Positions 3,746 to 47,227 are shown, numbered from the stretch's first letter. The stretch is 51,556 bases of DNA from Candidatus Niyogibacteria bacterium (GCA_016214345.1 JACROR010000025.1:1-51556); one strand, 5' to 3'. Notes: a model not told the origin generated them from the letters alone. Program-made: numbers and translations.

Positions 3746-3826
3746 TACGAAGTATACCTTACGAAGTATACCTCGGTGCCTGCCTGCCGGTAGGCAGGGT
3801 TCCAGGTTCGAATCCTAGTGCGCCCA
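3746..3826 (+). pseudogene. truncated copy of the tRNA-Ile 3' half carrying a 20-bp palindrome insertion
   Basis: 14-bp tandem repeat tacgaagtatacct x2 (3746-3773). Then cctcggtg + cctgcctgccggtaggcagg (3779-3798) + gttccaggttcgaatcctagtgcgccca. This mirrors tRNA-Ile nt 36-72 with 3 substitutions. No 5' half is present. Confidence 0.6.
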
Positions 3827-3866
3827 TAAATATGCAAAAAGCCGCATTTTATCGCGACTTTTTGTA

Positions 3867-3894
3867 TTGACTTATATGGCTTATATTCTATCAT
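3867..3894 (+). promoter_or_regulatory. candidate sigma70-like promoter for the proteasome operon
   Basis: TTGACT (3867-3872), 16-nt spacer, TATCAT (3889-3894), about 55 nt upstream of ATG 3951. Hexamer match only. Confidence 0.35.
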
Positions 3895-3950
3895 TTAAAG
3901 TAAATCGCTTTTTGACATTTGTATAAAACAATACGCGCTGACAGGAGGTA

Positions 3951-4154
3951 ATGATTATGGAAGAATTAATGGTTGCGTTGCGGGAATTGCTGGACGGGGG
4001 ACTTAATTTGTTGCAAGGCAGAATGACTAAAATTCAAAAAGAACGCATACGCAAATTTTTGGCTGACGCACGGGAACTTTTGGAAAAAATATCTGTTCGC
4101 GCCGCGGAATCACAGAATTTTGATGTTGCGCAGAAAAAAATATTGAACAACTGA
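3951..4154 (+). CDS. heptad-rich 67-aa ORF; probably the N-terminal coiled coil of the Mpa-like ATPase, detached by a -1 frameshift at an A7 run
   Basis: AGGAGG at 3943-3948. Helical heptad-like sequence. The downstream frame is already open from 4124 and continues the coiled coil (NIEQLTADISQLTADLEKA). Confidence 0.5.
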   Translation: MIMEELMVALRELLDGGLNLLQGRMTKIQKERIRKFLADARELLEKISVRAAESQNFDVAQKKILNN

Positions 4155-4183
4155 CCGCCGACATTTCGCAATTAACCGCTGAT

Positions 4184-4987
4184 TTGGAAAAAGCCAGAAC
4201 CACGATAGGCGGCAAGGTTGCCACCATGGAACAATTATATAAAGAAATACTTCGTTTAAGGGCGCTTATAGAGCCGCCCTTAAGTTACGGATATTTCGTC
4301 CGCGTGTCGCCCGAAGTGGTTCGCGGAGTGGATCCTATTTTGGGCGAACCCGAGCCGATTAAGGTGGATATTTATGAACCGCACGGAAAATTAATTACGG
4401 TAAATTTAAATCCTGCCATAAATGTTGCTTTGTTGCGGGTCGGACAACGGTTGCGGCTTTCTCCGCAGGGCAATGTGATGACAGTCTTAAATGAATTCGC
4501 GAATTTGGGAGTTACCGCCACGGTGGCTGATGTTTTGGGCAAATTGGTGCTGGTGAATTCTTCCATGGATGAACAGCGTCTTTTACAGGTCGCGGCCAAT
4601 GTAGATGCCACGCAGATCAAATCCGGTTCCAAGATTCTTTACGATCCGATTACGAATATGATTGTCGCCATACTTCCCAAAGAAGAAAAGAGCAGTTTGC
4701 AGATGGAAGAGGTTAAGGCGGTTACTTATAACAGTATAGGCGGCATGGCGGAACAAATCGCTCAATTTGAGGAAAATATAGTTTTTCCGCGGCTTTATCC
4801 GGCCATTTTTCAAAAGTACCAGACCGACGTGCCCAAGGGCGCCGCTTTTTACGGCCCTCCGGGTTGCGGCAAGACTCTTTTGGCAAGAGCCGCGGCTTAC
4901 CGCATAAAACAAGGCGATAAAAAAGTGGTAATTTTCGTGGCGAGCGGTTCGGAATTTCTCGTTAAATGGGTGGGTGATTCCGAGTAA
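4184..4987 (+). CDS. mpa: proteasome-associated AAA ATPase (Mpa/ARC-like), N-terminal part: coiled coil, OB region, Walker A
   Basis: The coiled coil ends in PPLSYGYFVRV (compare Mpa PPSGYGVLL), followed by a double OB-like region and Walker A GPPGCGKT. The ORF ends at in-frame TAA 4985-4987 within the conserved KWVGDSE-x-KVRE segment. The track start is TTG; the first ATG is at 4226. Confidence 0.85.
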   Translation: MEKARTTIGGKVATMEQLYKEILRLRALIEPPLSYGYFVRVSPEVVRGVDPILGEPEPIKVDIYEPHGKLITVNLNPAINVALLRVGQRLRLSPQGNVMTVLNEFANLGVTATVADVLGKLVLVNSSMDEQRLLQVAANVDATQIKSGSKILYDPITNMIVAILPKEEKSSLQMEEVKAVTYNSIGGMAEQIAQFEENIVFPRLYPAIFQKYQTDVPKGAAFYGPPGCGKTLLARAAAYRIKQGDKKVVIFVASGSEFLVKWVGDSE

Positions 4988-5038
4988 AAAGTTCGTGAGC
5001 CCGCCGAATACGCCAAAGCTCATCCGGATATCATAGTT

Positions 5039-5776
5039 TTGTATGTGGTGGATGAGATTGACGCGGTGTGCCGCACCAGGGGATCAAGCGGACATGCCGG
5101 AGTGAACGATTCCATTGTTACGCAATTCAATAGTTTGCTTGACGGTTTTGTGGAGATACCGAATTTAATTTTCATCGGCATTACCAACCGGTTGGATTTG
5201 CTGGACAGTTCGCTTTTGCGTCCCGGGCGCATGGATCTTCAATTAAAGATTCCTCGGCCTGATCGCAAGGGCGCCAAGGAAATTCTGAAAATTTATTTGC
5301 GGCCGGATTTGCCTTTTCACGCCAAATATTTTAACGCGTTGAAATATCCCGATTTAAGCAGTCCTGAAACCGTCGTAGGTTATTTGATTGAAAAGACGCT
5401 GGATCACATCTATGGAGAAGTTGGTCCGAATGATGAGCGTCGCCGCAAAATCGCGACCATTGAATTTTTGGATACGGAAATGAGGCAGACGCTTTATATG
5501 GGCGATCTTATTTCCGGAGCCGTATTAAAGAGCATAGCCAATCGCGCGAAATTAACTGCCGCGTTGGCGGAGAAAAACGGAAAATCTGCCGGCGTGCGCT
5601 TAAAATATTTGCATGACGCGGTAGACGAAGTATTCCGCACGGTGCGCGACCAGATAAGCAAGAGCGGTCCGGAAGAATGGGCGCGAATGGCCGACCTGCC
5701 GTTAGATAAGCCATTTAGAGTTATAGCCGAAAAAGATGATAATGACCCTGACAGCGGCTATAGTCGTACGGCGTAA
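5039..5776 (+). CDS. mpa: proteasome-associated AAA ATPase (Mpa/ARC-like), C-terminal part: Walker B, SRH, lid
   Basis: Same frame as 4184..4987, and the frame is open from 4988. Walker B VLYVVDEIDA, CRTRGSSG, ITNRLDLLDSSLLRPGRMDLQLKIPRPD. These align closely to my recollection of Mpa. Confidence 0.85.
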   Translation: MYVVDEIDAVCRTRGSSGHAGVNDSIVTQFNSLLDGFVEIPNLIFIGITNRLDLLDSSLLRPGRMDLQLKIPRPDRKGAKEILKIYLRPDLPFHAKYFNALKYPDLSSPETVVGYLIEKTLDHIYGEVGPNDERRRKIATIEFLDTEMRQTLYMGDLISGAVLKSIANRAKLTAALAEKNGKSAGVRLKYLHDAVDEVFRTVRDQISKSGPEEWARMADLPLDKPFRVIAEKDDNDPDSGYSRTA

Positions 5777-5795
5777 GTATTGACTTAGCATTAGT

Positions 5796-5826
5796 AAACT
5801 CTCATCATATGATGAGAGTTTTTTGG
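5796..5826 (+). terminator. rho-independent terminator-like hairpin between the ATPase and the Dop-like gene
   Basis: Perfect 20-bp palindrome ctctcatcatatgatgagag (5799-5818), extended by aaa/ttt and followed by a T-run. Confidence 0.55.
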
Positions 5827-5857
5827 TCTTTGAAATACGAAATAGACAGGAGGAATT

Positions 5858-7408
5858 ATGGCTTTGAGCAGTATTTTCGGTACGGAACATGAATACGGTA
5901 TTTTTGCGCCTGACGTAAAAAAATCCGGAGAAAATTATTATATGGCATCAAGACAGGTGTCATACGATATTGTGCGTTTAGGGGCGGATGTTATCGGCGG
6001 ATCAAACAGACAAGGCAGCCTGCCTATCTCCATGGAATCGCTTTTGCGGGAATATGGCTGGGATGCCAAGGATTTCATTGGCGGCAGAGATGTCGCTGAC
6101 GCGTTGCGTTATATAGGCGGTAGCGGCTATATGCTTTGGAACGGAGCGAGGTTTTATGTTGACGCAGGTCATCCGGAATATTCCACTCCGGAATGCAGTA
6201 CGGCTTACGAGCTTTTAGTCGCTGAAAAAGCGGGAGAGAGGATTGTGGAAGCGGCGGGAAAAAAAGCCGAAGGTTTAATGGGTCGTAGAATTTATCTGCA
6301 CAAAGATAATTCCGATCGCCACGGCCATAGTTACGCGGCGCATGAAAATTATCTGGTAACTCCGAAATTGTTTGATTTGCTGGCGCGCGCCGAAGCGTCC
6401 GGTATTTTTAACGCCTGGATTAATTTTTTGGTTACCCGGCAAATTTGGGCCGGAGCAGGGAAGGCAGGGTCTGATTTTGGCGATGAGGCAATTTTTCAAT
6501 TGTCCCAGCGCGCGGAGTTTTTTTCTCGGATCAGTTCGTTAAATACCATGCAATACAGGGGGATTGTTAACACCAGAGATAATTCTTACGCGGACGATTC
6601 ATCGCATAAACGTTTGCATGTCATTTTGGGCGATGCCAATATGTGTGATGTGGCGATTTTTTTGAAAGTCGGCGTGACCGCCTTGTTTCTCAAAATGTTG
6701 GAAGACGATTTTTTCGCGGAGCATAAAACTTTTTTGACGGAGCCGTTACGCTCTCCCTTAGAAGTTCTTCACGATATATCGGTTGACGCGGAAATGCGTA
6801 AAAAATTTTTGTTGCGGAACGAAAAACGTATCGGCGCGTTGGAGGCGCAGGAAGAAGTTTTACGGCTAATCAAAGAATACGGCGGACAAAACCTTTCTTT
6901 ATTAAACGACACGGAAAGAAAGGTGGCGGAACATTTTGAGGAGGTGATTATTCGTTTAAGGCGCGATCCATCTTCGCTTTACGGATGGCTGGATCACATT
7001 ACCAAGCGCGCGATAATCGCGCGGCAGCTTAATCGTTTGGGCAAAGATGCGGGCGATCCGCTCGCGGTGCGTTTGGATTTTCTCTATCACGATATAAACC
7101 GCTCCGCCGGGCTTTTTTATAAGCTCTGCGACGCGGGGCAGATTGTGCAAGTCGCGCAAGAAATTGATGTGATAAGGGCTATGACGGAACCTCCTGAAAC
7201 CACGCGGGCGTGGTTACGCAGCCAAATTTTGAAAAAATTTCACGGCTCTTACGGGCGTTGGAATTTTCTCAATGTGAAAATATCGGATGGCTGGCAAGGG
7301 CTGGTATTGGATAATCCTTCCGCGGGTAGCCGGCAAATGTGTGAAAAATTATTGGAAAAATCGCGTACGGCGGAAGATTTTTTTAAGTTGTGGAAGGAGG
7401 AAAAGTGA
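5858..7408 (+). CDS. dop: Pup ligase/deamidase family protein, Dop-like (long insert after the first strand)
   Basis: 516 aa. FGTEHEYG, NGARFYVDAGHPEYSTPEC, HENYLV, LVTRQIWAGAGK, INTRD, RLHVILGDANM. There are about 85 aa between TEHEYG and NGARFY, as in Dop. AGGAGG RBS. Confidence 0.8.
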   Translation: MALSSIFGTEHEYGIFAPDVKKSGENYYMASRQVSYDIVRLGADVIGGSNRQGSLPISMESLLREYGWDAKDFIGGRDVADALRYIGGSGYMLWNGARFYVDAGHPEYSTPECSTAYELLVAEKAGERIVEAAGKKAEGLMGRRIYLHKDNSDRHGHSYAAHENYLVTPKLFDLLARAEASGIFNAWINFLVTRQIWAGAGKAGSDFGDEAIFQLSQRAEFFSRISSLNTMQYRGIVNTRDNSYADDSSHKRLHVILGDANMCDVAIFLKVGVTALFLKMLEDDFFAEHKTFLTEPLRSPLEVLHDISVDAEMRKKFLLRNEKRIGALEAQEEVLRLIKEYGGQNLSLLNDTERKVAEHFEEVIIRLRRDPSSLYGWLDHITKRAIIARQLNRLGKDAGDPLAVRLDFLYHDINRSAGLFYKLCDAGQIVQVAQEIDVIRAMTEPPETTRAWLRSQILKKFHGSYGRWNFLNVKISDGWQGLVLDNPSAGSRQMCEKLLEKSRTAEDFFKLWKEEK

Positions 7409-9000: not shown

Positions 9001-9005
9001 GGGAG

Positions 9006-10422: not shown

Positions 10423-10446
10423 TTGTTCTTTGCAGAATTTTTATAA

Positions 10447-10482
10447 AAATCCCGCTATGATATGGCGGGATTTTTTTTTATT
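10447..10482 (+). terminator. rho-independent terminator of the proteasome operon
   Basis: Hairpin aatcccgc-tatgatatg-gcgggatt followed by a T9 run. Confidence 0.8.
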
Positions 10483-10494
10483 TTGTAAGATAAG

Positions 10495-12033: not shown

Positions 12034-12406
12034 CTTCTCTTGTTTTATTTGGAATTATGAAACTCTGTTTTAGACGCGCTTATTTTTCCAGCGGAAATAA
12101 GCTTTGTCCTCGGCGCTGGGTTTTTTGGTTCGCTTCGCGGATATTTATTATAATAACTTTTAATTATAAAACTCCGTTAAATGTGAAGAAATTGATTTTT
12201 TGCATCAATCAAGGGGGTTTCCATTTGGGTCGTGTTAGCGACCTTTCTAAAATAGGGGGGTTGTAAGTGCTCCCCCTTGCCTGATGAAAAAATCAATTTT
12301 GGAGCACTAAAGTGCTGCGTTTTGTAACCAATTGCTTTGCTCTTGGACAAAACGGGAGCATAGGAGTTTTGTAATTCAAAGTAGCCAAAAAAACACCAAG
12401 CCCAGC

Positions 12407-12428
12407 GCCTGCCTGCCGGCAGGCAGGC
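12407..12428. repeat. perfect 22-bp palindrome of element family A; likely recG terminator
   Basis: gcctgcctgccggcaggcaggc lies 42 nt 3' of the recG stop. On the minus strand a T7 run follows about 12 nt later. Confidence 0.7.
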
Positions 12429-12469
12429 CTGCGGGCGGTCTCACAACAGAGCTTCGTAATTTAAGTATT

Positions 12470-14597: not shown

Positions 14598-14669
14598 TGC
14601 CCTCAGTAGGAATCGAACCTACATCGCAAGCTCCGCAAGCTTGCGTCCTGTCCATTGAACGATGAGGGC
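14598..14669 (-). tRNA. tRNA-Arg, anticodon GCG
   Basis: 72-nt cloverleaf on the minus strand. Acceptor GCCCTCA/TGAGGGC, anticodon arm CAAGC-TTGCGGA-GCTTG, T arm GTAGG-TTCGATT-CCTAC, discriminator A. Confidence 0.85.
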
Positions 14670-14696
14670 GATTATTTATTTATAAATGTTATGGCT

Positions 14697-14752
14697 GTGC
14701 CTGTCCATTGCCCGCCCGAGGCGGGTCAGCCTTGGGCTGAAACGATGAGGGC
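14697..14752 (-). pseudogene. truncated copy of the tRNA-Arg 5' end (acceptor + D arm) with a 30-nt double-hairpin insertion in the D loop
   Basis: On the plus strand, cctgtccattg + cccgcccgaggcgggtcagccttgggctga (14711-14740) + aacgatgagggc. The flanks are identical to tRNA-Arg nt 1-23. There is no anticodon or T arm. Confidence 0.6.
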
Positions 14753-14856
14753 GTATAATTAAAATTTTCAATTTTATAATACACAATTTTCAAACGCGAA
14801 ACAATAAAAGCAGGGTTTGGAAATTAGAAATTAATAATTGTAAATTATCGTTGATA

Positions 14857-15391: not shown

Positions 15392-15919
15392 TTAATAGCG
15401 GGCAGACCTGCCTGCCGGCAGGTGATCTAAAATGAATTTGGCTCTTTTTGCCACGCTGTCCATTGGTACATTTACGCACGGCATGCTTCGCGTCTGATAT
15501 TCTTGACGAATAAGGTCGGCGATGATGAGAGCTTCTTTTTGATTAGCTTCCACGCGCAGACCGTCGTGTTCAAAGTCGTTCAACGGCTCTAAAAAGAAAA
15601 TTGTGTCGTAACGTACGTTTGTTTTGCATATTTCCGGAATATTTTCCAGACCGAAATATTTACAGTAGGCTATTCCGTCATACAGGCCTCTGTCCGTAAA
15701 AATGATGTCATGGTTTGAAGCGCGGATCTCTTTTTCGCGCGAGAGGTGTCTTTGCGCCAATTCAGTTTGGAATTCAATGGTGCGGGGAGCGAGAGTTTTT
15801 TCTTCTAAAATATCGCGCGCCGTTTCGCGCGACACGGGATAGCCGAGTTGCCGCAAATAGTTGATAGTGGTGGTTTTTCCCGATGACGCCGCGCCGGTTA
15901 TTACGAAAATTTTCGGCAT
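15392..15919 (-). CDS. P-loop NTPase (AAA_28/NadR-like ATPase)
   Basis: N-terminal Walker A GAASSGKTT. 175 aa. The last residues, HLPAGRSARY, are encoded by a family A palindrome copy. Confidence 0.7.
   Translation of the reverse strand: MPKIFVITGAASSGKTTTINYLRQLGYPVSRETARDILEEKTLAPRTIEFQTELAQRHLSREKEIRASNHDIIFTDRGLYDGIAYCKYFGLENIPEICKTNVRYDTIFFLEPLNDFEHDGLRVEANQKEALIIADLIRQEYQTRSMPCVNVPMDSVAKRAKFILDHLPAGRSARY
15407..15422. repeat. family A palindrome copy (truncated) forming the 3' end of CDS 15392..15919
   Basis: cctgcctgccggcagg. Confidence 0.6.
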
Positions 15920-18583: not shown

Positions 18584-18625
18584 AAAAACCCCTCACCTAC
18601 AAAGCAGGTGAGGGGTTTTTATTTT
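18584..18625 (+). terminator. rho-independent terminator of pepN
   Basis: cccctcacct-acaaagc-aggtgagggg with flanking A5 and T5aT4 runs. Confidence 0.8.
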
Positions 18626-18873
18626 GGCGGAAGGGGGGTGGCCCCGCAACAGCGGGATTGCTGTTTGTTACTAATCGCTTCGCTCTTAGACAAACAGGGA
18701 AGATTCAATTTTTTTTGGAAAATTTCGCGAAGCACTCCTAGTGTTTCGTTCAAGTCCTATGCTTTTTTCAATTTACTTCGCTCATTTCGGAAGGGGTGGG
18801 ACTCAATTTTCTTTTGGAAAATTCCGGGGAATGCCCCCGGCATTCCCTTCTCATCCCACCCCTTCCTTACTCG
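18626..18873. repeat. array of tRNA-Ser(UGA)-derived fragments and associated hairpins
   Basis: The 29-bp segment cttcgctcatttcggaaggggtgggactc at 18776-18804 is identical to 18874-18902 (tRNA 3' end plus flank). A degenerate copy ggcggaaggggggtgg is at 18626-18641. An inverted copy cccaccccttcc is at 18855-18866. Palindrome ggggaatgcccccggcattccc. Repeated caatttt(c)ttttggaaaatt. Confidence 0.65.
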
Positions 18874-18885
18874 CTTCGCTCATTT

Positions 18886-18970
18886 CGGAAGGGGTGGGAC
18901 TCGAACCCACAAGCCCCTTGCGGGGCGCTGGTTTTCAAGACCAGTTCCTTACCATTCGGAGCACCCTTCC
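18886..18970 (-). tRNA. tRNA-Ser, anticodon UGA
   Basis: 85 nt, class II. Acceptor GGAAGGG/CCCTTCC, anticodon arm CTGGT-CTTGAAA-ACCAG, long variable arm GCCCCGCAAGGGGC, T arm GTGGG-TTCGAGT-CCCAC, discriminator G. Confidence 0.9.
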
Positions 18971-19045
18971 ATAATTTTTTTTAACTTGTTTTATTTTGAC
19001 AAGCAAGGAGCGAGTGAATCCGCCATTTAGCGGATTAACATCATT

Positions 19046-19065
19046 CCTGCCTACCGACAGGGAGG
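19046..19065. repeat. degenerate family A palindrome copy
   Basis: cctgcctaccgacagggagg. Confidence 0.5.
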
Positions 19066-19164: not shown

Positions 19165-19184
19165 CCTGCCTACCGGCAGGCAGG
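19165..19184. repeat. family A palindrome copy
   Basis: cctgcctaccggcaggcagg, followed by cgaagcgatt (module aatcgcttcg in reverse). Confidence 0.7.
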
Positions 19185-19239
19185 CGAAGCGATTAGAAAA
19201 TGGAAGCACTCTCTGTGGTGCGATCTGATCTCGCGGCGT

Positions 19240-22620: not shown

Positions 22621-22786
22621 GAGTTTTTTTACCCTGTTAAATAATTTGTTTTACAAATTAAAATCTTTGATTTTATTTAACAGGGTGAATTTTTTAGATC
22701 AAAGATAATGACCTGTTGTATTTTATCATTTTTATGGCCAGCGGCAAATTTTTGAAAATTTGGGTTTTTCACGTTAGACTTTACCT

Positions 22787-24715: not shown

Positions 24716-24892
24716 CACTGCGGAGAGGGCGGCCTGCTTGCCGGTAGGCAGGGACTTGGTCACAAATAATTTTCCTGACGGAAAATTTTCGCGACCCCGC
24801 CTCGCTGCGTCAGCCTTCGCTTCGCGAAACTGACGCAACGCTTCGGCTTTCAAGTCCCGCACGCAAGCAAAGCAGTTTGCTTGCTCCCCTCC
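24716..24892 (-). other. tRNA-Ser(GCU) 3'-end copy split by a family A palindrome, plus a conserved structured element (paralog of 44263..44354)
   Basis: cactgcggagagggcgg + cctgcttgccggtaggcagg (24733-24752) + gact repeats the tRNA 3' end. 24789-24892 aligns in inverted orientation with 44263-44354. Confidence 0.6.
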
Positions 24893-24920
24893 TTCATTCA
24901 CTCGCTACGCTCATTCACTG

Positions 24921-25007
24921 CGGAGAGGGCGGGACTCGAACCCGCAAGCGGCTTTTGGACCGCTACAGATTAGCAATCTGCTGCCTTACCATTCGGCGCA
25001 CCTCTCC
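24921..25007 (-). tRNA. tRNA-Ser, anticodon GCU
   Basis: 87 nt, class II. Acceptor GGAGAGG/CCTCTCC, anticodon arm GCAGA-TTGCTAA-TCTGT, long variable arm, T arm GCGGG-TTCGAGT-CCCGC, discriminator G. Confidence 0.9.
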
Positions 25008-33230: not shown

Positions 33231-33719
33231 ATGTTGAAAAGATATAAACCGGGGGGCGGTTCGGGTGGTTTTACCCTTATTGAGCTTTTGGTGGTCATTG
33301 CCATTATTGGCATTTTGGCATCCGTGGTTTTGGCGTCTTTGAATGACGCGCGCAAGAAAGGTCGTGATGTTCGTCGTTTATCTGATCTAAGAGCAATGGG
33401 CAATGCGATTGCTATGTTGGGAGAAGCCACGGCCTTTGTCGGTTGTACCGCGTCAGGCCTTGCCAATGCTTGTACGACGCCGAACTTTGCATCCCCGGCC
33501 TTTACCGATCCCAGCGGCAGCGCGGTTTGTGGCATTGGAGCGACAACGGCGGCATGTAATTATCGTGTAGCGAAGCAGGGCGCTTCTGGAGCTCCCACGG
33601 CGGCTGATTGGCAAATTTGCGCTTATTTGGAGGCAGGAGCGGGAAGTTTGGCGGCAGGGCCGGTGCATATAGGCAGCGATACCAGTTATAGTATTATTGC
33701 CGGTGGTTGCACCTTTTAA
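33231..33719 (+). CDS. type IV major pilin candidate 1
   Basis: Leader [13 protein letters not shown]|[25 protein letters not shown]. Cys-containing variable C-terminus. Confidence 0.85.
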
Positions 33720-33828: not shown

Positions 33829-34320
33829 ATGAAAAATACAAAAAAAGGTTTTACTTTGATTGAGCTTTTGGTGGTTATTGCCATTATCGGTATTTTGGCA
33901 TCCGTGGTTTTGGCGTCTTTGAACAGCGCGCGTAAAAAGGGCCGAGACGCGAGACGCGTTGCCGATATCAAACAGGTCCAATTGGCGTTGGAGCTTTATT
34001 TTGACGCCATGAAGAATTATCCGCAAGCATTAGGTGGTACGGGTAATTTAGTGCCTGCTTATTTGCCAGCGGAGCCCAAAGATCCTTTGACCGGTGCCTC
34101 TTATAATTATGCAGTAAATGCTGCTTCAGCAGCCTCTACTTATCATTTAGGAGCTACCCTGGAAGAATCTACCAACCCAGCCTTGAGTTCCGACAGAGAT
34201 TGCACCAGCTTAGCTGCGGGTTGTTTTGCGGGGGCGGCCACATCCGGTGGATTTAACGGTGCTGGCGCAGGGACTAACGGTGATGACGCAACAACTCCTG
34301 TTTACGATTTAACTCCGTAA
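33829..34320 (+). CDS. type IV major pilin candidate 2
   Basis: Leader MKNTKKG|[25 protein letters not shown]. The N-terminal helix is identical to pilin 1 and the globular domain is divergent. Confidence 0.85.
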   Translation: MKNTKKGFTLIELLVVIAIIGILASVVLASLNSARKKGRDARRVADIKQVQLALELYFDAMKNYPQALGGTGNLVPAYLPAEPKDPLTGASYNYAVNAASAASTYHLGATLEESTNPALSSDRDCTSLAAGCFAGAATSGGFNGAGAGTNGDDATTPVYDLTP

Positions 34321-36208: not shown

Positions 36209-36784
36209 ATGCAAAATATTCTAAAAACTAAAATCTATAACCTAGCCCCTAATTCCTATCCCCTAAAACCTAATTCAGGTTTTAGTCTGCTGGAAACTTT
36301 GGTGGCTTTAGCCATTTTGAATGCCGCCATGTTGGGTCCCATAACGCTTGCGTATAACAGCATTCGTTCGGCCAGTCTGTCGCATGACAAGACTATCGCC
36401 GCTTTTTTGGCGGAAGAGGCGGTAGAATTGGTACGCGCCAAGCGCGACGCCAATATTTATCAGGGGAGTAATTGGCTGGACGGTTTGTTGGGTGTTTGTG
36501 TCGCGGGTAATCCCTGCCTGGTTGATGCGACCGTGGATATGAGCACGGCTATACGATTGTGCGCCGGTAATTGCGTCGTAAAATACCAATATGACGCCTT
36601 CACCAATTCCGGATTTTACAAGCATCAGGCGGGAGTTGATACGGTTTTTAGCAGGCAAGTCGTGGTGGACGAAGTAACTGCTGGTAAAGAGGCCAAGATC
36701 ACGGTTACGGTTAGTTGGAAGGAACGTTTTTTGCCGTTAGAATCAAAAGTGGAAATAGAAGAACATATTTTTAATTGGCACTGA
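36209..36784 (+). CDS. minor pilin / pseudopilin (PilV-like)
   Basis: MQNILKTKIYNLAPNSYPLKPNSG|FSLLETLVALAIL. Long Lys/Asn-rich leader. The track ORF starts at 36143. Confidence 0.6.
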   Translation: MQNILKTKIYNLAPNSYPLKPNSGFSLLETLVALAILNAAMLGPITLAYNSIRSASLSHDKTIAAFLAEEAVELVRAKRDANIYQGSNWLDGLLGVCVAGNPCLVDATVDMSTAIRLCAGNCVVKYQYDAFTNSGFYKHQAGVDTVFSRQVVVDEVTAGKEAKITVTVSWKERFLPLESKVEIEEHIFNWH

Positions 36785-36791: not shown

Positions 36792-37367
36792 ATGCAAAAC
36801 GCAAAATTAAGAACTAAAAACTATAAACTAAAACCTAATTCGGGTTTTACCTTGTTTGAAATAATCGTGGCTGTGGGCGTTTTTTCCATGGCCATTTCGG
36901 TTATTTTAAGCGCCATGCTTTCCATGACCGAAGCTCAACGCAAGGCCATTACCTTGCAGTCCGCGGAAGATAATTTACGTTTTGCGATAGAGGCGATGTC
37001 TAGAGAAATTCGTACGGGAAACACTTATGATTGCAATAATGCTGGTAACGGTATGCCCAGTAATTGCAATGGAGGAGGAAATAGCCTGGCCTTTGTTTCC
37101 GCTAAAGGAAATCGGATAATTTATAGATGGAACAGTTTAGATTACACCATTGAAAAATCCGTTGATGATGGCGGCGCTTATTATCCGATCACCAGTTCGG
37201 ATATTAAAATTGAAATGCTCCGGTTTTACGTTTTTGGGGCTGGCCAAGACCAAGAACAGCCGAGAGTTTTGATATCCATCAGAGCAACCGCGCAAGATTT
37301 AAAATCAAAAGTCCAATCGCAGTTTAATATACAAACCACTATCGCCCAGCGCGAGTTGGATTCATAA
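36792..37367 (+). CDS. minor pilin / pseudopilin (PilW-like)
   Basis: MQNAKLRTKNYKLKPNSG|FTLFEIIVAVGVF. The leader is homologous to that of 36209..36784. Confidence 0.6.
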   Translation: MQNAKLRTKNYKLKPNSGFTLFEIIVAVGVFSMAISVILSAMLSMTEAQRKAITLQSAEDNLRFAIEAMSREIRTGNTYDCNNAGNGMPSNCNGGGNSLAFVSAKGNRIIYRWNSLDYTIEKSVDDGGAYYPITSSDIKIEMLRFYVFGAGQDQEQPRVLISIRATAQDLKSKVQSQFNIQTTIAQRELDS

Positions 37368-39901: not shown

Positions 39902-39922
39902 GGGAATTTTGCGTTAACTAAT

Positions 39923-40264
39923 ATGGATATAGAAAAAATCAGTCAGCTGGCGCGGCTAAAATTAAATGACCAAGAAAAGGAAACTTTAAGTAAAGAGCTC
40001 AATTCAATTTTGGCGTACATAGATAAATTGAAAGAATCCGACGTGAGAGAGGCGCCGCCAGCCCAAGGCTGGTCCGCCTCGGGCGGAGAAGATTTTGCAG
40101 GGGCGTTTAATGATCTTCGTGAAGATGAGGTGCCGCCAGCCCAAGGCGGATCCCTGCCTACCGGACAGGCGGGCGCCTCGGGCGGAGAAGATCTGGTGGA
40201 GGCGTCTCCGGAAAAGGCCCGCGGATTTATCAAGGTTAAAGGAGTTTTTGATGTCCAGAATTGA
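39923..40264 (+). CDS. gatC: Asp/Glu-tRNA amidotransferase subunit C carrying two in-frame repeat-element insertions
   Basis: N-terminus IEKISQLARLKLNDQEKETLSKELNSILAYIDKL and the LREDEV motif are typical of GatC. The extra segments PPAQGWSASGGED and PPAQGGSLPTGQAGASGGED are encoded by palindromic elements. Confidence 0.8.
   Translation: MDIEKISQLARLKLNDQEKETLSKELNSILAYIDKLKESDVREAPPAQGWSASGGEDFAGAFNDLREDEVPPAQGGSLPTGQAGASGGEDLVEASPEKARGFIKVKGVFDVQN
40055..40086. repeat. family B double-hairpin element, in frame within gatC
   Basis: ccgccagcccaaggctggtccgcctcgggcgg is the reverse complement of the type inserted in the tRNA-Arg fragment at 14711-14740. Confidence 0.7.
40133..40185. repeat. 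family B element with a nested family A palindrome, in frame within gatC
   Basis: ccgccagcccaaggcgg-atc-cctgcctaccggacaggcgg-gcgcctcgggcgg. Confidence 0.7.
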
Positions 40265-41696: not shown

Positions 41697-41702
41697 TTAT
41701 TT

Positions 41703-42257: not shown

Positions 42258-42336
42258 AGTTAAGACGGTTTACAATCCCAATAGACCATGCTAAGGTTCC
42301 GACAAGTTCGGAACTTTTACAATTTTAGGAGGTGTT

Positions 42337-42777: not shown

Positions 42778-42790
42778 TTAAGAATAAATT

Positions 42791-42830
42791 AAAACCTCAT
42801 CAGCTCAAAGCTGATGAGGTTTATTATTTT
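42791..42830 (+). terminator. rho-independent terminator
   Basis: 12-bp perfect stem acctcatcagct-caa-agctgatgaggt followed by ttattatttt. Confidence 0.8.
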
Positions 42831-42866
42831 GTTTTAATGTGATAGATTAGTGTATAGAAATTCAAT

Positions 42867-42941
42867 GCGGCGGTAGTTCAGCCCGGTTAGAACGCTCGCC
42901 TGTCACGCGAGAGGTCGTGGGTTCAAATCCCATCCGCCGCG
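42867..42941 (+). tRNA. tRNA-Asp, anticodon GUC
   Basis: 75 nt. Acceptor GCGGCGG/CCGCCGC, anticodon arm CTCGC-CTGTCAC-GCGAG, T arm GTGGG-TTCAAAT-CCCAT, discriminator G. Confidence 0.9.
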
Positions 42942-43066
42942 CATAGTTCGGAACGAACAATAAAATATGATGGGATTTGAACGGAGCGATATTATCGCTC
43001 CGCGGGATTTTCATAGGAGAAAATCAAATCCCATCCGCCGCGCATAGTTCGGAACGAACAATAAAA
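42924..43066 (+). repeat. 42-bp perfect direct repeat duplicating the tRNA-Asp 3' end plus 24 nt of flank
   Basis: caaatcccatccgccgcgcatagttcggaacgaacaataaaa occurs at 42924-42965 and 43025-43066. The 59-bp spacer contains an inverted T-arm copy (gatgggatttgaac) and the hairpin ggagcgat-att-atcgctcc. Confidence 0.85.
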
Positions 43067-43100
43067 AATCCTGTCGCTTGAGAGCAATAGGATTTTTTTA
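43064..43100. terminator. bidirectional terminator-like hairpin between the tRNA-Asp region and pyrH
   Basis: aaaaaatcct...aggattttttt. The stem is short (6 bp) with a large loop. Confidence 0.4.
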
Positions 43101-43823: not shown

Positions 43824-43893
43824 TTTCTTCCTCCATTTCCGTATTTTTTCAATTGTTTACATAATAATTTAATTGGCGCAAAATGCAATACTT

Positions 43894-44027
43894 GCCCGCA
43901 CACTAATAATGGCATTGTGCTTTTATACTGTCTTGGCAGTTTTTTAAAAATCAAGGGTAATTAAAATTTAGATATAAATTTTTCTCTATAAGGGCGCGCA
44001 GTGTAATGCCATTATTAGTGTGTGGGC
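43894..44027. repeat. 23-bp inverted repeat pair flanking an 88-bp AT-rich spacer in the pyrH / tRNA-fMet divergent region
   Basis: gcccgcacactaataatggcatt (43894-43916) versus aatgccattattagtgtgtgggc (44005-44027). 18 bp are perfect. Confidence 0.7.
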
Positions 44028-44064
44028 TTGCAATGGCGTGGCATTTTTCTTATACTGTGTTTTG

Positions 44065-44089
44065 TATATCGCGGGGTGGAGGAGTAGTA
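44065..44089 (+). pseudogene. truncated copy of the initiator tRNA 5' end (5 nt of flank + nt 1-20)
   Basis: tatatcgcggggtggaggagtagta is identical to 44136-44160. It is followed by the small hairpin ccgc-cgga-gcgg. Confidence 0.7.
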
Positions 44090-44140
44090 TTCCGCCGGAG
44101 CGGAGCTGATAACAAAATAAGATAATTTGAGGCAATATAT

Positions 44141-44211
44141 CGCGGGGTGGAGGAGTAGTACCTCGGGAGGCTCATAACCTCCAGGCCCGGGTGCAATTCC
44201 CGGCCCCGCAA
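44141..44211 (+). tRNA. initiator tRNA-fMet, anticodon CAU
   Basis: 71 nt. C1 x A72 mismatch (CGCGGGG / CCCCGCA), anticodon arm GGAGG-CTCATAA-CCTCC, T arm CCGGG-TGCAATT-CCCGG (unusual loop), discriminator A. Confidence 0.8.
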
Positions 44212-44225
44212 CAACAAAATAAAAA

Positions 44226-44252
44226 TACCCCTCTTGAGAGGGCATTTTTATT
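44226..44252 (+). terminator. weak terminator after tRNA-fMet
   Basis: ccctc-ttga-gaggg followed by catttttattta. Confidence 0.45.
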
Positions 44253-44262
44253 TATGTTTTGT

Positions 44263-44354
44263 GAGGGCAGCGAGCAAACTGCTTTGCTCGCGTCGGGAAT
44301 TGCAAGCCGGAGCAATGTCCGCCCGAGGCGGACAAAGCGAGGCGGGGTCGCGAG
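44263..44354 (+). other. conserved structured element (candidate ncRNA or composite repeat) downstream of tRNA-fMet; paralog of 24789..24892
   Basis: Shared blocks AGCgAGCAAACTGCTTTGCTcGCGT, CGGGA, AAGCCGgAGC and GCGAGGCGGGGTCGCGA. The internal hairpin differs in sequence between copies but keeps its position. Confidence 0.55.
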
Positions 44355-44472
44355 CCCAAAAATTAAGGAGCGAAGCGATTGTAATTTTTGAGGACTCGTG
44401 ACCAATTCCCAGTTATCTCATTTCTTTAATAAATCTTGTCCAGAGTTAAAAATTGCCTTATATTATTAAATA

Positions 44473-44561
44473 TGTCGGTGTAGCTTCTGCCCGAGGCAGC
44501 CCCCTGCCTACCGAGCAGGCAGGCGCCTTGGGCGGGCAGTGGTAGGGCAAGTTTGCCGGCA
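44473..44561 (+). pseudogene. truncated tRNA-Met 5'-end copy with a 50-nt composite palindrome insertion in the D arm
   Basis: gtcggtgtagctt + ctgcccgaggcag-ccc-cctgcctaccgagcaggcagg-cgccttgggcggg + cagtggtagggc, then tgccggca, which can pair with the 5' end. Confidence 0.6.
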
Positions 44562-44593
44562 AATAGATGGAATTTAATAATTATCAATACATT

Positions 44594-44665
44594 GCCGGCG
44601 TAGCTCAGTGGTAGAGCGAGGGACTCATAAACCCTAGGCCGGAGGTCCGATTCCTCCCGTCGGCA
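44594..44665 (+). tRNA. tRNA with CAU anticodon (elongator Met, or Ile2 if lysidinylated)
   Basis: 72 nt. Acceptor GCCGGCG/CGTCGGC (one G-U), anticodon loop CTCATAA with a 31-39 A-A mismatch, T arm GGAGG-TCCGATT-CCTCC, discriminator A. Confidence 0.8.
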
Positions 44666-44677
44666 TTAATATAAGTT

Positions 44678-45370
44678 TTAGTTTTTTATGGCGATGAGTA
44701 AAATATTGGAACGCTGTCCACCGGTATTTTTTATTTTGTGTAGAATTTTTACGTTAAAACCGATCTCTTTGGCCAATTGTGCCAGACGTTTTTCGGTAAA
44801 AGCGTGGAGATAGCGTGTTTCTTGGTGTTTGCCAAAAGTTAAGAATAAATCTCCCCAATCCAATTTATTGCCGCTGATTTTTCCTAAAAAAGACTTTATG
44901 AAATATGGCAAAAATCTTGCGCGCCATAGATCCCAAGCGGTAATAATCAAGACACCGTTTTTTGCTAAAACGCGAGCGGCTTCTTTAAAAAATTGCCGCT
45001 GAAATTCCTTTGACGGTATGTGATGAAGCGTTGCCAGAGACACAACGGCGTCAAATGATTGGTCGGGGAAGGGGAGATTTAATGCGTCGGCTAAGACGAA
45101 TTTTTTATCGGAGTGCAGCTGTTGCGCTTCTTGCAACATATTTTTCGAGAAATCCACGCCAGTGTATCCAAGCGTAGTTTCACCGAGCAGTTCCAATAAA
45201 CGGCCGTTGCCGCAGCCGATGTCCAAGACTTTGCCGTTTTTTGGCAAGTAATTTTTAATGAAAGCGAGTTCCGGCCAAAAATGCGCGCGTGTCTCGGAAA
45301 ATTCCCGCGCGATTTTTTCGTAGGATTGCTTGGATGCTTCCAATATTTTTTCCGCTTCTTTTTTATCCAT
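44678..45370 (-). CDS. class I SAM-dependent methyltransferase
   Basis: 230 aa. Motif I VLDIGCGNGRL, with acidic residue and motif II downstream. Confidence 0.85.
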   Translation of the reverse strand: MDKKEAEKILEASKQSYEKIAREFSETRAHFWPELAFIKNYLPKNGKVLDIGCGNGRLLELLGETTLGYTGVDFSKNMLQEAQQLHSDKKFVLADALNLPFPDQSFDAVVSLATLHHIPSKEFQRQFFKEAARVLAKNGVLIITAWDLWRARFLPYFIKSFLGKISGNKLDWGDLFLTFGKHQETRYLHAFTEKRLAQLAKEIGFNVKILHKIKNTGGQRSNILLIAIKN

Positions 45371-45556
45371 TTTGATATTATACTATCAAGTGCTCATGGA
45401 TTGTAAAATTTTGATTTTATCAATAAAACATCTGCTTTGCGGCACGCGCGCTGCTCCAGCGGCAGCGCGCTCTGTCCTCGGCGCTTTTTTGCAAAAGCAA
45501 AACCAAGCAAAGCGCCTGCGGACGGCCGCAAATCAGAGTTTTATATAAAAATCACT

Positions 45557-47227
45557 ATGCTGTTTGATCGCGTAAAAACCGAAGAAGATGTGGGGCGGCT
45601 GAAATTAAAAATAATGAAAGACGCCGCGCTTCGCCAAGAAATAGAGGCCATACGTAAAGGTTTTGGCTATTTTTTGCGGTCTCCCGCTAAAAATACCATG
45701 CCAACCAATGCCGAACTTTTAGCGCTATATAAAAAATTAATTAAAGCTGGTAAAGAAACGTCTAATCGCGCCACGGAATTAATCTTGCGAAAAAATAAGA
45801 CCAAAAGTAATTCCGGCGTGGCGGTGGTTTCCGTTTTGACCAAGCCGTATCCTTGTCCGGGTAATTGCCTTTATTGCCCCACGGAGCAAGAAATGCCGAA
45901 AAGTTATTTGTCCAAAGAGCCGGCCGCGGCGCGCGCTTTGCGGAATGGTTTTGACGCGGCGCGGCAAGCTGTAACGCGCTTGCGGGCGCTTCAAGCCAAC
46001 GGTCACCCCACGGATAAGGTGGAGATGATAATAATCGGCGGAACTTGGGGGGCGTATCAGCAAAAATACCGCGAAAATTTCGTGCGCGATCTGTTTTTCG
46101 CGTGCAATACTTTCGGGGTACGTAAAAGAAAGCGCAGACCATTGGCAAAGGAGCAAGCATTAAATGAGCGCGCCAAATGCCGTATCGTGGGATTATCAAT
46201 TGAAACGCGCCCCGATTGGGTTAATGAAAAAGAAATCACGCATATGCGCCGCTTAGGAGTAACTAAGGTGGAATTGGGAGTTCAGCATTTGGATGATGAG
46301 ATTTTGAATCTTAATCGTCGTGGCACGACTCAAAAACAGATTATTTTTGCCACGCGCTTATTGAAGGACGCGGGATTTAAGATCGTTTATCATATGATGC
46401 CCAACCTTTTGGGGAGCGATTCCAAGAAAGATCTGGCGGCGTTTCATAAATTATTTACGGATGAGAATTATCAGCCGGATATGCTGAAAATTTATCCGTG
46501 CATAGTTTTGGAATCAACGGATTTGCACGACATTTGGAAAAGCGGGAAATACCGGCCGTATTCCGCAACAGAATTGAAAAATTTGCTGATTGATATTAAA
46601 AAAATAATTCCGCCCTACGTTCGCATTATGCGGGTTATACGTGATATTCCGGCAGAGTATATCGTGGCGGGGAGCAAGATAACCAATTTACGGCAGGACC
46701 TTTTGTCGGGAGACAAACGAATTTGCCGGTGTATAAGATGCCGCGAGATAAGGGAAGAAGAGGCGCGGATATCTGATTTGGCTTTACATAAAATAGAGTA
46801 TGCCGCTTCGGAAGGGCGCGAAATATTTTTAAGTTGGGAGAGAAAAAGCGACAACCGTCTCGCGTCTTTTTTGCGGTTGCGATTGCCTACCGGACATGCC
46901 TACCGGATAGGCAGGCAGGCAGGTTTGCCGTACTCGTTGCTTAGCAATAAATCCAAGGTGGCACCTTGGATGAGAAATGGGGGCGCGTTATATGGTGCCG
47001 CCTTAATCAGGGAATTGCATACTTACGGCCGCCTTATGAGGATAGGCGTTAAGGGCGCTCAATCCCAGCATCGCGGCTTGGGGCAGAAATTGCTCCATGA
47101 GGCGGAAAAAATCGCCAAAAAAGCGGGTTACAAAAAAATGGCCGTAATTTCAGGCGTTGGCGTGCGAAATTATTACCGCAAATTGGGATACCGCCTGCAG
47201 GATACTTATATGGTAAAATCAATATAA
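45557..47227 (+). CDS. elp3: Elp3-type radical SAM / GNAT acetyltransferase (tRNA U34 carboxymethyluridine synthase homolog)
   Basis: ATG 45557. Radical-SAM cluster CPGNCLYCP, Elp3-like core, and C-terminal GNAT motif QHRGLGQKLL. The track ORF extension from 45437 runs through GC-rich repeats. Confidence 0.85.
   Translation: MLFDRVKTEEDVGRLKLKIMKDAALRQEIEAIRKGFGYFLRSPAKNTMPTNAELLALYKKLIKAGKETSNRATELILRKNKTKSNSGVAVVSVLTKPYPCPGNCLYCPTEQEMPKSYLSKEPAAARALRNGFDAARQAVTRLRALQANGHPTDKVEMIIIGGTWGAYQQKYRENFVRDLFFACNTFGVRKRKRRPLAKEQALNERAKCRIVGLSIETRPDWVNEKEITHMRRLGVTKVELGVQHLDDEILNLNRRGTTQKQIIFATRLLKDAGFKIVYHMMPNLLGSDSKKDLAAFHKLFTDENYQPDMLKIYPCIVLESTDLHDIWKSGKYRPYSATELKNLLIDIKKIIPPYVRIMRVIRDIPAEYIVAGSKITNLRQDLLSGDKRICRCIRCREIREEEARISDLALHKIEYAASEGREIFLSWERKSDNRLASFLRLRLPTGHAYRIGRQAGLPYSLLSNKSKVAPWMRNGGALYGAALIRELHTYGRLMRIGVKGAQSQHRGLGQKLLHEAEKIAKKAGYKKMAVISGVGVRNYYRKLGYRLQDTYMVKSI
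46884..46923. repeat. tandem/partial family A element, in frame within elp3
   Basis: tgcctaccggacatgcctaccggataggcaggcaggcagg encodes LPTGHAYRIGRQAG. Confidence 0.65.

Follow-up and report, generated by a model that had tools for sequence, protein, structure and literature searches.

What are the GC-rich palindromes that recur between genes, beside tRNAs and inside open reading frames of the window, by which we mean the whole 51,556-nt stretch of DNA analysed here, and what could have put them there? The window belongs to the 691-kb genome of an ultra-small bacterium (Patescibacteria), a fragmented MAG of 32 contigs (G000), which we compared with a congener at ~80% identity (G001; median 80.7%) and with two genomes of the same family (G002 and G003). 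The initial annotation had described one modular family of dispersed, nested, GC-rich palindromic mini-elements resembling REP and Rickettsia palindromic elements, and this description is supported in all but its first point. Each motif position that it claimed was found, the module C at 18872 being merely partial. The features are as follows, with strand given where one was assigned.

3779-3798: module A, 20 nt, in the variable-loop position of a decayed tRNA-Ile 3' half (3767-3826).
12158-12383, plus strand: MITE-like element of ~226 nt with inverted ends AATTRYAAAACTCC ... GGAGTTTTRYAATT.
12319-12353: 35-45-nt hairpin with a module-C variant (a repeated 'string' in the initial annotation), nested in the MITE.
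12408-12427: module A as a perfect palindrome of 20 nt, in the spacer where the 3' ends of recG and a glycosyltransferase gene converge.
14711-14739: module B, two 13-15-nt hairpins (CCCGCC-CGAG-GCGG, CAGCC-TTGG-GCTG), upstream of tRNA-Arg.
15407-15422: module A, partial (16 nt), on the margin of a ~570-nt block that does not align to G001 and contains an AAA_28 ORF (15392-15919, minus strand).
18662-18696, plus strand: second copy of the 35-45-nt hairpin family, core AATCGCTTCGCTCTTGGACAAA.
18673 and 25307, reversed at 19184 and 44370: module C, AATCGCTTCGC.
19046-19065: module A, degenerate (2 mismatches), 74 nt upstream of tRNA-Ser(UGA).
19165-19184: module A, abutting a reversed module C (19184-19194).
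22629-22689: hairpin of another family, ~60 nt, arms ACCCTGTTAAA / TTTAACAGGGT, a gap in G001.
24733-24752: module A (1 mismatch), in a decayed 3'-end copy of tRNA-Ser(GCU), GGAGAGGGCGG^GACTTGG.
24863-24884: hairpin GCAAGCAAAGCAGTTTGCTTGC, with an inverted partner at 44270-44291 (90% complementary), the only 2 exact copies in G000.
40055-40086, plus strand: module B, in frame in gatC, translated as PPAQGWSASGGED.
40133-40185, plus strand: composite of a 21-nt module A within module-B arms, in frame in gatC (PPAQGGSLPTGQAGASGGED).
44318-44331: module B, single unit (TCCGCC-CGAG-GCGG).
44487-44537: B-A-B composite hairpin at the D-loop position (GTAGCT^CAGTGG) of a decayed tRNA-Met 5' fragment.
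46884-46923, plus strand: ~1.5 degenerate module-A units within the ELP3-like radical-SAM gene at 45437-47227, where they are translated in frame as part of a variable loop.
46953-46969: palindrome CCAAGGTGGCACCTTGG, in the same ELP3-like protein loop.

Several hairpin-repeat families are present here, not one modular family. We distinguish module A (20/21 nt), module B (15-nt units), a 45-nt hairpin that contains module C and others of 23-48 nt, all independent, together with the ~226-nt MITE, and their modular look arises because the elements insert beside and within one another. In the composite and gatC entries the module-B hairpins themselves occupy 40059-40086, 40139-40185 and 44489-44535. 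Module A (CCTGCCTRCCGGYAGGCAGG, a 20-nt palindrome, perfect or nearly so) carries the 12-mer CCTGCCTGCCGG, which with n=34 is the commonest 12-mer of the genome, and it occupies ~49 loci genome-wide, while other hairpin families have 5-22 copies. In the window it matches with <=3 mismatches at 3779, 12408, 19046, 19165 and 24733 versus 0 matches in 100 shuffles, and the reversed pattern, used as a control, gave 0 matches in G000 and at most one match, in about ten genomes, across a 401-genome sample. The repeats are far above chance.

That these hairpin repeats are insertions, and mobile ones, is near certain. Presence/absence polymorphism between relatives, which the initial annotation had named as a check, was found between G000 and G001: the congener has only 2 nt in place of the block at 12036-12467, lacks both gatC inserts and the hairpin at 22629-22689, and at the tRNA-Ile site, where G000 has a working tRNA-Ile (3638-3710) followed downstream by the decayed half, has a single uninterrupted tRNA without the ~94-nt insert. 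The module A at 12408-12427, missing in G001, has a paralogous copy with the same flanks at C18:9079, and the G001 counterpart of 14711-14739 is unrelated sequence. Genome-wide, 20 module-A copies of G000 have alignable flanks, of which 10 are absent in G001, 6 are common and 4 lie in divergent sequence; the clean empty sites are G^C in 5-6 of 8, and indels of exactly 21 or 42 nt occur in ORFs in both directions. Arrays differ in unit number between the congeners (1 vs 2 units, C12:1101 / G001 C6:6083), and the common copies drift at the pace of their surroundings. The AATCGCTTCGCTCTTGGACAAA core is found in 10 copies in G000 versus 0 in G001, ACCCTGTTAAAT, counted for the hairpin at 22629-22689, in 13 versus 1, and another hairpin family in 22 versus 1. 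GatC has 113 aa in G000 as opposed to 94-101 aa in G001, G002 and G003, ELP3-like homologues from four other genera are without the ~26-aa loop extension, and pheT has two module-A sites that are empty in outgroups, one common with G001 and one specific to G000. Because outgroups are without these inserts, the comparison of sequences indicates that the empty state is ancestral in gatC, the ELP3-like gene and pheT; the insert at 24733-24752 is itself ancestral, because the G001 locus has a like relic with a module-A-like insert.

Module A takes two lengths, which differ in where they are found. The 21-nt variant (GCCTGCCTGT-CCG-GTAGGCAGGC plus flanking G and C; in the window at 40153-40173, 44503-44523 and 46895-46915) has ~10-nt arms and a 3-nt loop, a build common to other hairpin families, and lies within ORFs of >=150 aa in 13 of 19 cases, compared with 3 of 21 for the 20-nt form (Fisher p = 0.0009). 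The 20-nt form in turn lies <=300 nt from a tRNA in 8 of 21 cases (3.7% expected, p = 5e-7), as do 11 of 24 non-ORF module-A copies taken together (13.8% expected). Copies within ORFs are read in a variety of frames and in either orientation (LPTGQAG, CLSGRQ, PAYRTGR and others), and the in-frame insertion into genes that had first been proposed is borne out by exact 7-codon (21-nt) units. Module A is organised as singlets or as head-to-tail 21-nt arrays of 2-3 units, and its hairpin has a stability of -10.2 kcal/mol as DNA. The composite at 44487-44537, upstream of a working tRNA-Met (44593-44666), folds as single-stranded DNA at -17.8 kcal/mol and has a sister at the same position in a tRNA-Thr relic (C2:19567).

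We also considered intrinsic (Rho-independent) terminators, the role first suggested for copies at gene ends, and rejected them: these are GC-rich hairpins with no T-run (>=4 T within 12 nt, either strand) beside any of 18 non-ORF module-A copies.

We read the ~226-nt element as a conventional MITE. Seven or more copies of it exist, 87-95% identical, several of them at contig ends and one without the nested hairpin, and its terminal inverted repeats are ~14 nt long; its flanks are AT-rich, a consistent target-site duplication was not found in them, and a comparison with Rfam gave no family match. Like Correia and ERIC-type MITEs it is of the order of 100-300 nt, has terminal inverted repeats and no ORF, exists in multiple near-identical copies that are present or absent between relatives, and can harbour nested smaller repeats, whereas its sequence is unrelated to theirs and it shows no clear target-site duplication.

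What, then, could move the smaller hairpins? The window holds no cognate transposase, as had been noted, and a genome-wide check for RAYT-type genes found six RAYT-like Y1 (HUH) genes in G000, with PF01797 scores above or near the curated cut-off; 18 family members all keep both the HUH histidines and the tyrosine. Each of the six is bracketed by its own 17-23-nt hairpin, several of these bracketing families are dispersed in 5-18 copies, and the palindrome at 46953-46969 is of the same type as the hairpins on either side of a Y1 gene of G001. Moreover, most of 34 Y1 genes sampled in other genomes are flanked, on one side or both, by hairpins of 21-23 nt that have 3-nt loops. Module A brackets none of the six G000 genes. 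The hairpin of the C15 gene (CCTGGCTATCCGATAGCCAGG) is identical to 21-nt module A at 17 of 21 positions, two of the four differences being a compensatory pair, and in the MAG QZIU01000008 (G361), which has 25 module-A copies, the sole Y1 gene is a decayed one whose N-terminal 94 aa share 51% identity with the C15 enzyme and which has module A on both sides, 64 nt away upstream and close by downstream. Some observations run against a Y1 route. Neither G000, G001 nor the 34 sampled loci yielded an intact Y1 gene with module A on both sides, and pattern scans of genome contigs (4 matches, 1 relevant) and of metagenome contigs (11 matches, none with a Y1 gene) likewise returned none; against NCBIfam REP_Tyr_transpos the Y1 proteins score only 20-37 bits (cut-off 80), and the Y1 family profile matches the solved IS200/IS605 transposase 2XM3 marginally (E = 0.01).

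Across the class, module A is present in 221 of 401 sampled genomes and 163 of 283 genera. The initial annotation had called the element undescribed in this lineage; a literature search with the exact sequence found no published description, while the restriction to one lineage does not hold with this distribution. G002 and G003 have no module A, and G040 has 34-40 copies between housekeeping genes. A Y1 homologue is present in 55% of genomes overall, and is missing from 14 of the 42 sampled genomes with >=10 module-A copies (E <= 1e-10; hand count). REPs normally diverge along with their cognate enzyme, and one 20-mer across 163 genera is thus unusual; this breadth and the copy-rich genomes without Y1 also speak against a Y1 route.

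Taking these data together, we favour as probable, though far from assured, that the motifs are families of tiny non-autonomous REP-type mobile hairpins moved by Y1 enzymes, plus one MITE. We link module A to this route because Y1 genes are bracketed class-wide by hairpins of the same architecture, and infer that a Y1 enzyme is its mobiliser. On this view, Y1 (HUH) tyrosine transposases of RAYT/IS200 type would take up the repeats as single-stranded hairpins, by excision or by copying, and would insert them into DNA that is itself single-stranded. Selection would then act as a filter, such that mainly the 21-nt (7-codon) form or its multiples would survive in ORFs, in any of five stop-free frames, and the 20-nt form would survive in spacers, notably in the truncated tRNA copies that lie next to tRNA genes and are dispensable. 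Module A itself may be cross-mobilised by the enzyme with the 17/21-identical hairpin, or may be the orphan of a lost enzyme.

Several known systems resemble what we describe. The SDR4-6 repeats of Nostoc/Anabaena, which Elhai and colleagues are said to have described in 2008, are reportedly 21-27-nt mobile-like hairpins that nest in each other and in other mobile elements and have empty sites in related sequences. In all these respects they are like the repeats here, and differ in their unrelated sequence and different phylum; to our knowledge they have not been linked to bracketed Y1 genes, and we know of no report in them of a split of 20- and 21-nt forms between non-coding and coding DNA.

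Closer to the proposed mechanism stand the REPtrons of Proteobacteria (REP/BIME/REPIN with RAYT, TnpA_REP; Nunvar 2010; Bertels & Rainey 2011 PMC3116915; Di Nocera 2013 PMC3733652), in which, as here, short GC-rich imperfect palindromes exist in tens of copies, family-specific Y1 (HUH) genes are bracketed by their own hairpins (here sister families), a genome has several families and several enzymes, occasional copies are intragenic, and genomes keep repeats after enzyme loss. Unlike REPtrons, however, the hairpins here end in neither a GTAG nor a CGTC tag (the flanks of copies show just a G...C stem extension, and GTAG is found only in the loop-proximal part of the 3' arm in one strand form, CCGGTAGGCAGG), and they are single 20-23-nt hairpins or head-to-tail arrays, not REPIN-type inverted doublets, two points that weigh against a REP/RAYT likeness. 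In addition, a large share lies in frame in ORFs as exact 21-nt units, one sequence recurs across an entire class with copies in tens, not hundreds, and the enzymes are distant relatives below the NCBIfam RAYT cut-off. Direct demonstration of RAYT-driven REP transposition is lacking in every system (PMC3733652). TIRYT/TIRtron elements (Di Nocera 2013, PMC3733652) share with the present case RAYT-like genes with non-GTAG inverted-repeat flanks that are dispersed, moderately abundant and in part self-complementary, but those of Acidobacteria, Stenotrophomonas and others have longer TIRs in place of 21-23-nt hairpins with 3-nt loops. Rickettsia palindromic elements similarly lie in frame in protein genes, where they are translated as extra loops, and in RNA genes and spacers; they are 100-150 bp long, restricted to Rickettsia, CGTC-tagged (PMC3733652) and without a known transposase, whereas the repeats here are 15-48 nt and unrelated in sequence.

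The rival that survives best, unlikely as we judge it, keeps module A mobile but has it moved by a host process (template switching or gene conversion between copies at stalled forks, with subsequent slippage giving 21-nt arrays) or by some enzyme other than Y1. The roughly one third of copy-rich genomes without a Y1 gene, the failure to find an intact cognate gene and the varying unit number of head-to-tail arrays favour it, as does insertion at G^C, the closing base pair common to target and element, which is compatible with microhomology. However, ~10-nt arms, a CCG/CGG loop and 23 nt are the very architecture that brackets Y1 genes class-wide, the decayed gene of G361 is bracketed by module A, and the identical sequence at many unrelated sites requires a donor-copy mechanism, not local fold-back.

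We give less credence to the idea that host selection for a function mainly maintains module A, be it as a hairpin for transcript ends or RNA stability or as a site of RNA processing or protein binding. The same 20-mer recurs class-wide, punctuates the spacers between housekeeping genes in G040, is kept at some orthologous sites in both congeners and forms a stable hairpin, but of 16 copies that can be compared the congener lacks 10 at the orthologous site, those kept drift like their surroundings, copies lie in ORFs and in dead tRNA fragments, G002 and G003 of the same family have none, and the T-run is absent. It is more doubtful still that the tRNA-associated copies are ends or scars of larger tRNA-targeting units (cassettes or integrase remnants duplicating tRNA ends). 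Besides the enrichment near tRNAs, most window tRNAs have a truncated self-copy 50-190 nt away, and the working tRNA-Ile has a new acceptor stem while its relic keeps the 3' strand seen in G001; these truncated copies begin at the anticodon loop, T-loop or 5' end, and the intervening 50-190 nt are without a gene. Yet the 20/21-nt unit is also found alone in ORFs and in spacers far from tRNAs, its position within relics is the variable loop, D-loop or T-arm of the tRNA fragment and not a cassette end, and the 21-nt ORF indels are left unexplained. Chance similarity or assembly artefact has a negligible probability: although the MAG is fragmented and repeats lie at many contig ends, the shuffled and reversed controls refute it, and assembly chimeras are ruled out because the repeats are shorter than sequencing reads, contig-internal, inside conserved genes and recurrent in hundreds of independent assemblies.

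Beside the preferred reading of hairpins moved by Y1 enzymes, we tentatively raise a further one, which we consider improbable: that module A is a class-wide orphan hairpin, still spreading without a resident Y1 by way of a host factor or replication process or of enzymes supplied in trans. If so, a conserved host factor or replication process would read the exact hairpin, or enzymes from horizontally moving DNA would spread it. The 20/21-nt (7-codon) module A would then rank with the smallest insertion units so far reported to propagate themselves in bacteria, and its spread would go on altering the loops of proteins, the relics of tRNAs and the spacers in hundreds of genera of Patescibacteria.

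The hairpin repeats of the window are real and richer than the initial annotation described, and the elements are almost certainly tiny insertional hairpin repeats. The window is contig C17 of G000, a metagenome-assembled genome of 691 kb in 32 contigs with a GC content of about 46%, and its genes are ordinary housekeeping ones (ftsH, recG, an M1 peptidase gene, gatCA, pilin genes and an ELP3-like radical-SAM gene) with seven tRNAs. All three modules (A, B and C) are present as first described, and so are the pair of 22-nt hairpins and the 'string' of 35 nt; the exception is the module C site at 18872, which is a partial match only. For module A, CCTGCCTRCCGGYAGGCAGG has five matches in the window at ≤3 mismatches versus 0 in 100 shuffles, and the other listed sites, read directly from the sequence, are 21-nt or partial variants. 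Genome-wide there are about 49 module A loci, and CCTGCCTGCCGG is the top 12-mer of G000 with 34 occurrences.

These motifs had been taken for a single modular family; self-BLAST combined with hairpin enumeration of G000, used after 11-mer clustering proved too noisy for de novo family discovery, instead resolves several separate ones. Module A is a 20-nt palindrome with a 21-nt variant, CCTGCCTGTCCGGTAGGCAGG (or its complement), which together with a usual flanking G and C gives a 23-nt hairpin; module B units are hairpins of 13-15 nt; and module C and the string are pieces of one 35-45-nt hairpin with the core AATCGCTTCGCTCTTGGACAAA, found in 10 copies. Additional families in G000 are 23-nt hairpins with a 10-bp stem and 3-nt loop, and hairpins of 48-60 nt. 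Larger elements are also present.

Larger elements containing or accompanying the hairpins
12158-12383: MITE-like element of about 226 nt with inverted ends, at least 7 copies at 87-95% identity
gatC: 50-nt composite, module A within module B arms
relic (decayed truncated copy) of tRNA-Met: the same 50-nt composite
C2:19567 (contig C2 of G000): the same 50-nt composite

One MITE copy is missing the nested 45-nt hairpin, and therefore the nesting came about by insertion. In Rfam the MITE block had no match beyond one sub-threshold chance hit. A separate family of CCCCTCACCCAGAAA and related GGTGAGGGG hairpins (e.g. window 18590-18625) numbers about 36 genome-wide, 29 of them intergenic, and some look like true terminators with a hairpin and T-run, for example 3' of the M1 peptidase gene. 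Most G000 contigs terminate in 120-230-nt repeats of 5-12 copies (for example C17:1-124, C3:1-128, C6:1-128, C18:1-231 and C8:133167-133307), and these are what broke the assembly. The repeats at 33267-33367 and 33847-33947 (86% identical) and at 36249-36318 and 36814-36883 (71%) lie in neighbouring paralogous small ORFs with pilin-like N-termini; they are gene duplicates with no relation to the hairpin families.

The initial annotation had proposed comparing orthologous intergenic regions for presence and absence, and a whole-genome alignment of G000 with G001, a metagenome-assembled genome of the same genus (636 kb, median identity 80.7%), revealed such polymorphism. The interval 12036-12467, which holds the MITE and a module A, corresponds to 2 nt in G001, and G001 is also without both gatC inserts and without 22629-22689. 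Indels of at least 12 nt number 70 extra in G000 and 45 extra in G001. Many of them consist of hairpins from these families, and on either side some are module A units of exactly 21 or 42 nt. Flanks could be aligned for 20 G000 module A copies: G001 cleanly lacks 10 of them and shares 6, and at the other 4 the sequence has diverged. Other families are much more abundant in G000 than in G001 (10 vs 0, 13 vs 1 and 22 vs 1 copies). The inserts reach into proteins: GatC has 113 aa in G000 versus 94-101 aa in G001 and two same-family genomes (G002 and G003), the ELP3-like protein carries a loop extension of about 26 aa (module A plus a second palindrome) missing in four other genera, and both pheT inserts are missing in five outgroups, one being common to G001 and the other G000-specific. 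Judged from these sequence comparisons, insertion polarity is settled at the sites testable (gatC, the ELP3-like gene and pheT), and insertions thus took place before the two species separated as well as afterwards. In G001, module A units of 21 nt also stand head to tail in arrays of two or three (C9:1934-1996, C6:6083-6124, C6:11347-11409 and C13:1442-1483), and unit number varies between the congeners at the same site (1 vs 2 at G000 C12:1101). An AAA_28 ORF of 175 aa (15392-15919) sits in a block of about 570 nt that does not align to its 312-nt G001 counterpart and has a partial module A at one edge.

Placement of module A depends on its length. Of 19 copies of the 21-nt form, 13 lie within ORFs of ≥150 aa, versus 3 of 21 for the 20-nt form (Fisher p = 0.0009), with such ORFs, crude longest-ORF calls, making up 81% of G000. 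Copies within ORFs are translated in several frames and in either orientation (LPTGQAG is commonest, with CLSGRQ, PAYRTGR and PACPVG also seen), and thus module A is a DNA-level element filtered for frame rather than a protein motif. A terminator role had also been suggested, but a T-run was found at 0/18 non-ORF copies, which are therefore not canonical terminators. Clean empty sites read G^C in 5-6 of 8 cases, so that the base pair closing the 23-nt hairpin comes from the target. Module A clearly lies within the tips of pre-existing hairpins in several places, namely module B at 40133 and 44487, the hairpin type of the C15 transposase gene (see below) at C11:8633 and C12:27682, and also C26:16189 and C32:1977; that module A generally favours hairpin tips was not supported, as flank complementarity showed no overall enrichment against 20,000 random positions. 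The G.T-pairing form is on the C-rich strand in 18/24 asymmetric copies (p = 0.02), a bias confounded with gene orientation on contigs of undefined replichore.

Outside ORFs, module A is associated with tRNA genes. The 20-nt form lies ≤300 nt from a tRNA in 8/21 cases versus 3.7% expected (p = 5e-7), and all non-ORF copies do so in 11/24 versus 13.8% of non-ORF space (p = 1.5e-4). A module A-like hairpin is near 15 of 46 tRNAs (two of these hairpins are C15-type), and tRNA-proximal module A typically lies within truncated tRNA copies, in the variable loop, D-loop or T-arm. In the window, every tRNA gene is accompanied, 50-190 nt away, by a truncated duplicate of its 5' or 3' part.

Window regions comprising a tRNA and its truncated copy
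3638-3826: tRNA-Ile(UAU)
14598-14755: tRNA-Arg
18776-18971: tRNA and copy
24720-25007: tRNA and copy
42867-43069: tRNA and copy
44069-44212: tRNA and copy
44480-44666: tRNA and copy

The copies begin at the anticodon loop, T-loop or 5' end, with self-repeats of 29 nt at 100% identity for tRNA-Ser(UGA) and 46 nt at 98% for tRNA-Asp, and hairpin repeats fill or break the spacers and relics; genome-wide, about 13-15 of the 46 tRNAs have truncated self-copies. ARAGORN assigns anticodon UAU to tRNA-Ile (3638-3710) and GCG to tRNA-Arg (14598-14669), both uncommon among bacteria. At the tRNA-Ile site G001 has a single uninterrupted tRNA, and G000 has, besides a tRNA, a relic and about 94 additional nt. 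The working G000 gene is the same as that of G001 (C19:1044-1121) except for a fully altered acceptor stem (GGATGCG/CGCATCC vs GGGCGCA/TGCGCCC), and the downstream relic retains the G001-type 3' strand; read together, these sequences suggest that the whole gene was replaced by an incoming copy rather than plainly duplicated.

As the initial annotation noted, the window holds no transposase. A genome search of the kind it proposed, for a REP-associated tyrosine transposase, identified six Y1 genes (HUH, PF01797, RAYT-like, about 210-230 aa) in G000, each flanked by its own hairpin directly 5' of the start and at or past the stop, and several of these bracketing hairpins are also dispersed families. 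One Y1-like gene (C2:~3470-3930, minus strand) carries its own hairpin ACTTGGAGGTTCAACCTCCAAGT three times, once immediately 5' of the start and twice in frame as LGGSTSK. Across the class Minisyncoccia, most of 34 sampled Y1 genes bear hairpins of 21-23 nt with a 3-nt loop at one end or at both, and closely related Y1 proteins have similar hairpins. The HUH histidines and a catalytic-position tyrosine are invariant in 18 family members. Against NCBIfam REP_Tyr_transpos the proteins score 20-37 bits (cut-off 80) and, judged by such scores, are only distant relatives of classical RAYTs; a PDB search with a single Y1 sequence gave no match, and one with the family profile a marginal match to ISDra2-type (IS200/IS605) TnpA.

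We consider mobilisation by Y1 enzymes the best-supported mechanism, somewhat more likely than not for module A and more probable still for the families that bracket Y1 genes. Module A matches the hairpin of the Y1 gene on contig C15 at 17/21 positions, the differences including a compensatory pair, and shares the architecture of Y1-bracketing hairpins. Moreover, a class member (G361, MAG QZIU01000008) has 25 module A copies and a sole Y1 gene, of the C15 clade, that is internally deleted and has module A on both sides, consistent with the loss of enzymes and persistence of repeats known for REP/RAYT systems (PMC3733652). An intact Y1 gene with module A on both sides was found neither in G000 or G001 nor in the 34 sampled loci or pattern scans of genome and metagenome contigs; scanning for 'module A + 35-65 nt + HxxNRG' turned up 4 loci in genome contigs, one being the decayed gene, and 11 in metagenome contigs, 0 with a Y1 gene. 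With the N-terminus of the decayed gene as query, nothing close was found outside its own genome, the next matches being 53-58% identical.

Module A (CCTGCCT-N5-7-AGGCAGG) occurs in 221/401 genomes and 163/283 genera of the class, with a maximum of 34 copies, versus ≤1 match in about ten of the 401 genomes for a reversed pattern; named MAGs with the repeat are Parcubacteria-type Patescibacteria. A dependence on Y1 genes is not borne out: Y1 homologues occur in 220/401 genomes (55%) and, tallied by hand from two tables, in only slightly more (28/42, 14/42 being without) of those with at least 10 copies. G040 has 34-40 copies and no Y1, its hairpins punctuating spacers between housekeeping genes. 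Unlike ordinary REPs, module A is constant in sequence over the whole class, which could reflect a host factor, enzymes supplied in trans by mobile DNA or enzyme-independent copying. The repeats are best placed with the REP/RAYT kind, among which this constancy is unusual, as are units that stand singly at 20-23 nt, insertions of exactly 7 codons in essential genes, the coding/non-coding split by length and the affinity for tRNA relics; a literature search found no published description of them.

Ultra-small CPR genomes are usually viewed as streamlined and repeat-poor. This 0.69-Mb genome nonetheless holds many tiny hairpin-insertion families, a visible share of its indels versus a congener, and the inserts lengthen essential proteins (GatC, PheT and the ELP3-like enzyme) by 5-26 residues. 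The clean split between 21-nt copies in ORFs and 20-nt copies outside shows that selection filters a DNA parasite by reading frame. In CPR metagenome bins the practical effects are broken assemblies, inflated apparent protein divergence and confused tRNA annotation. A single hairpin sequence kept in >160 genera, often without a candidate transposase, is hard to fit in current REP/RAYT models: either enzyme and repeat are less tightly linked than has been supposed, or some other mechanism is at work.
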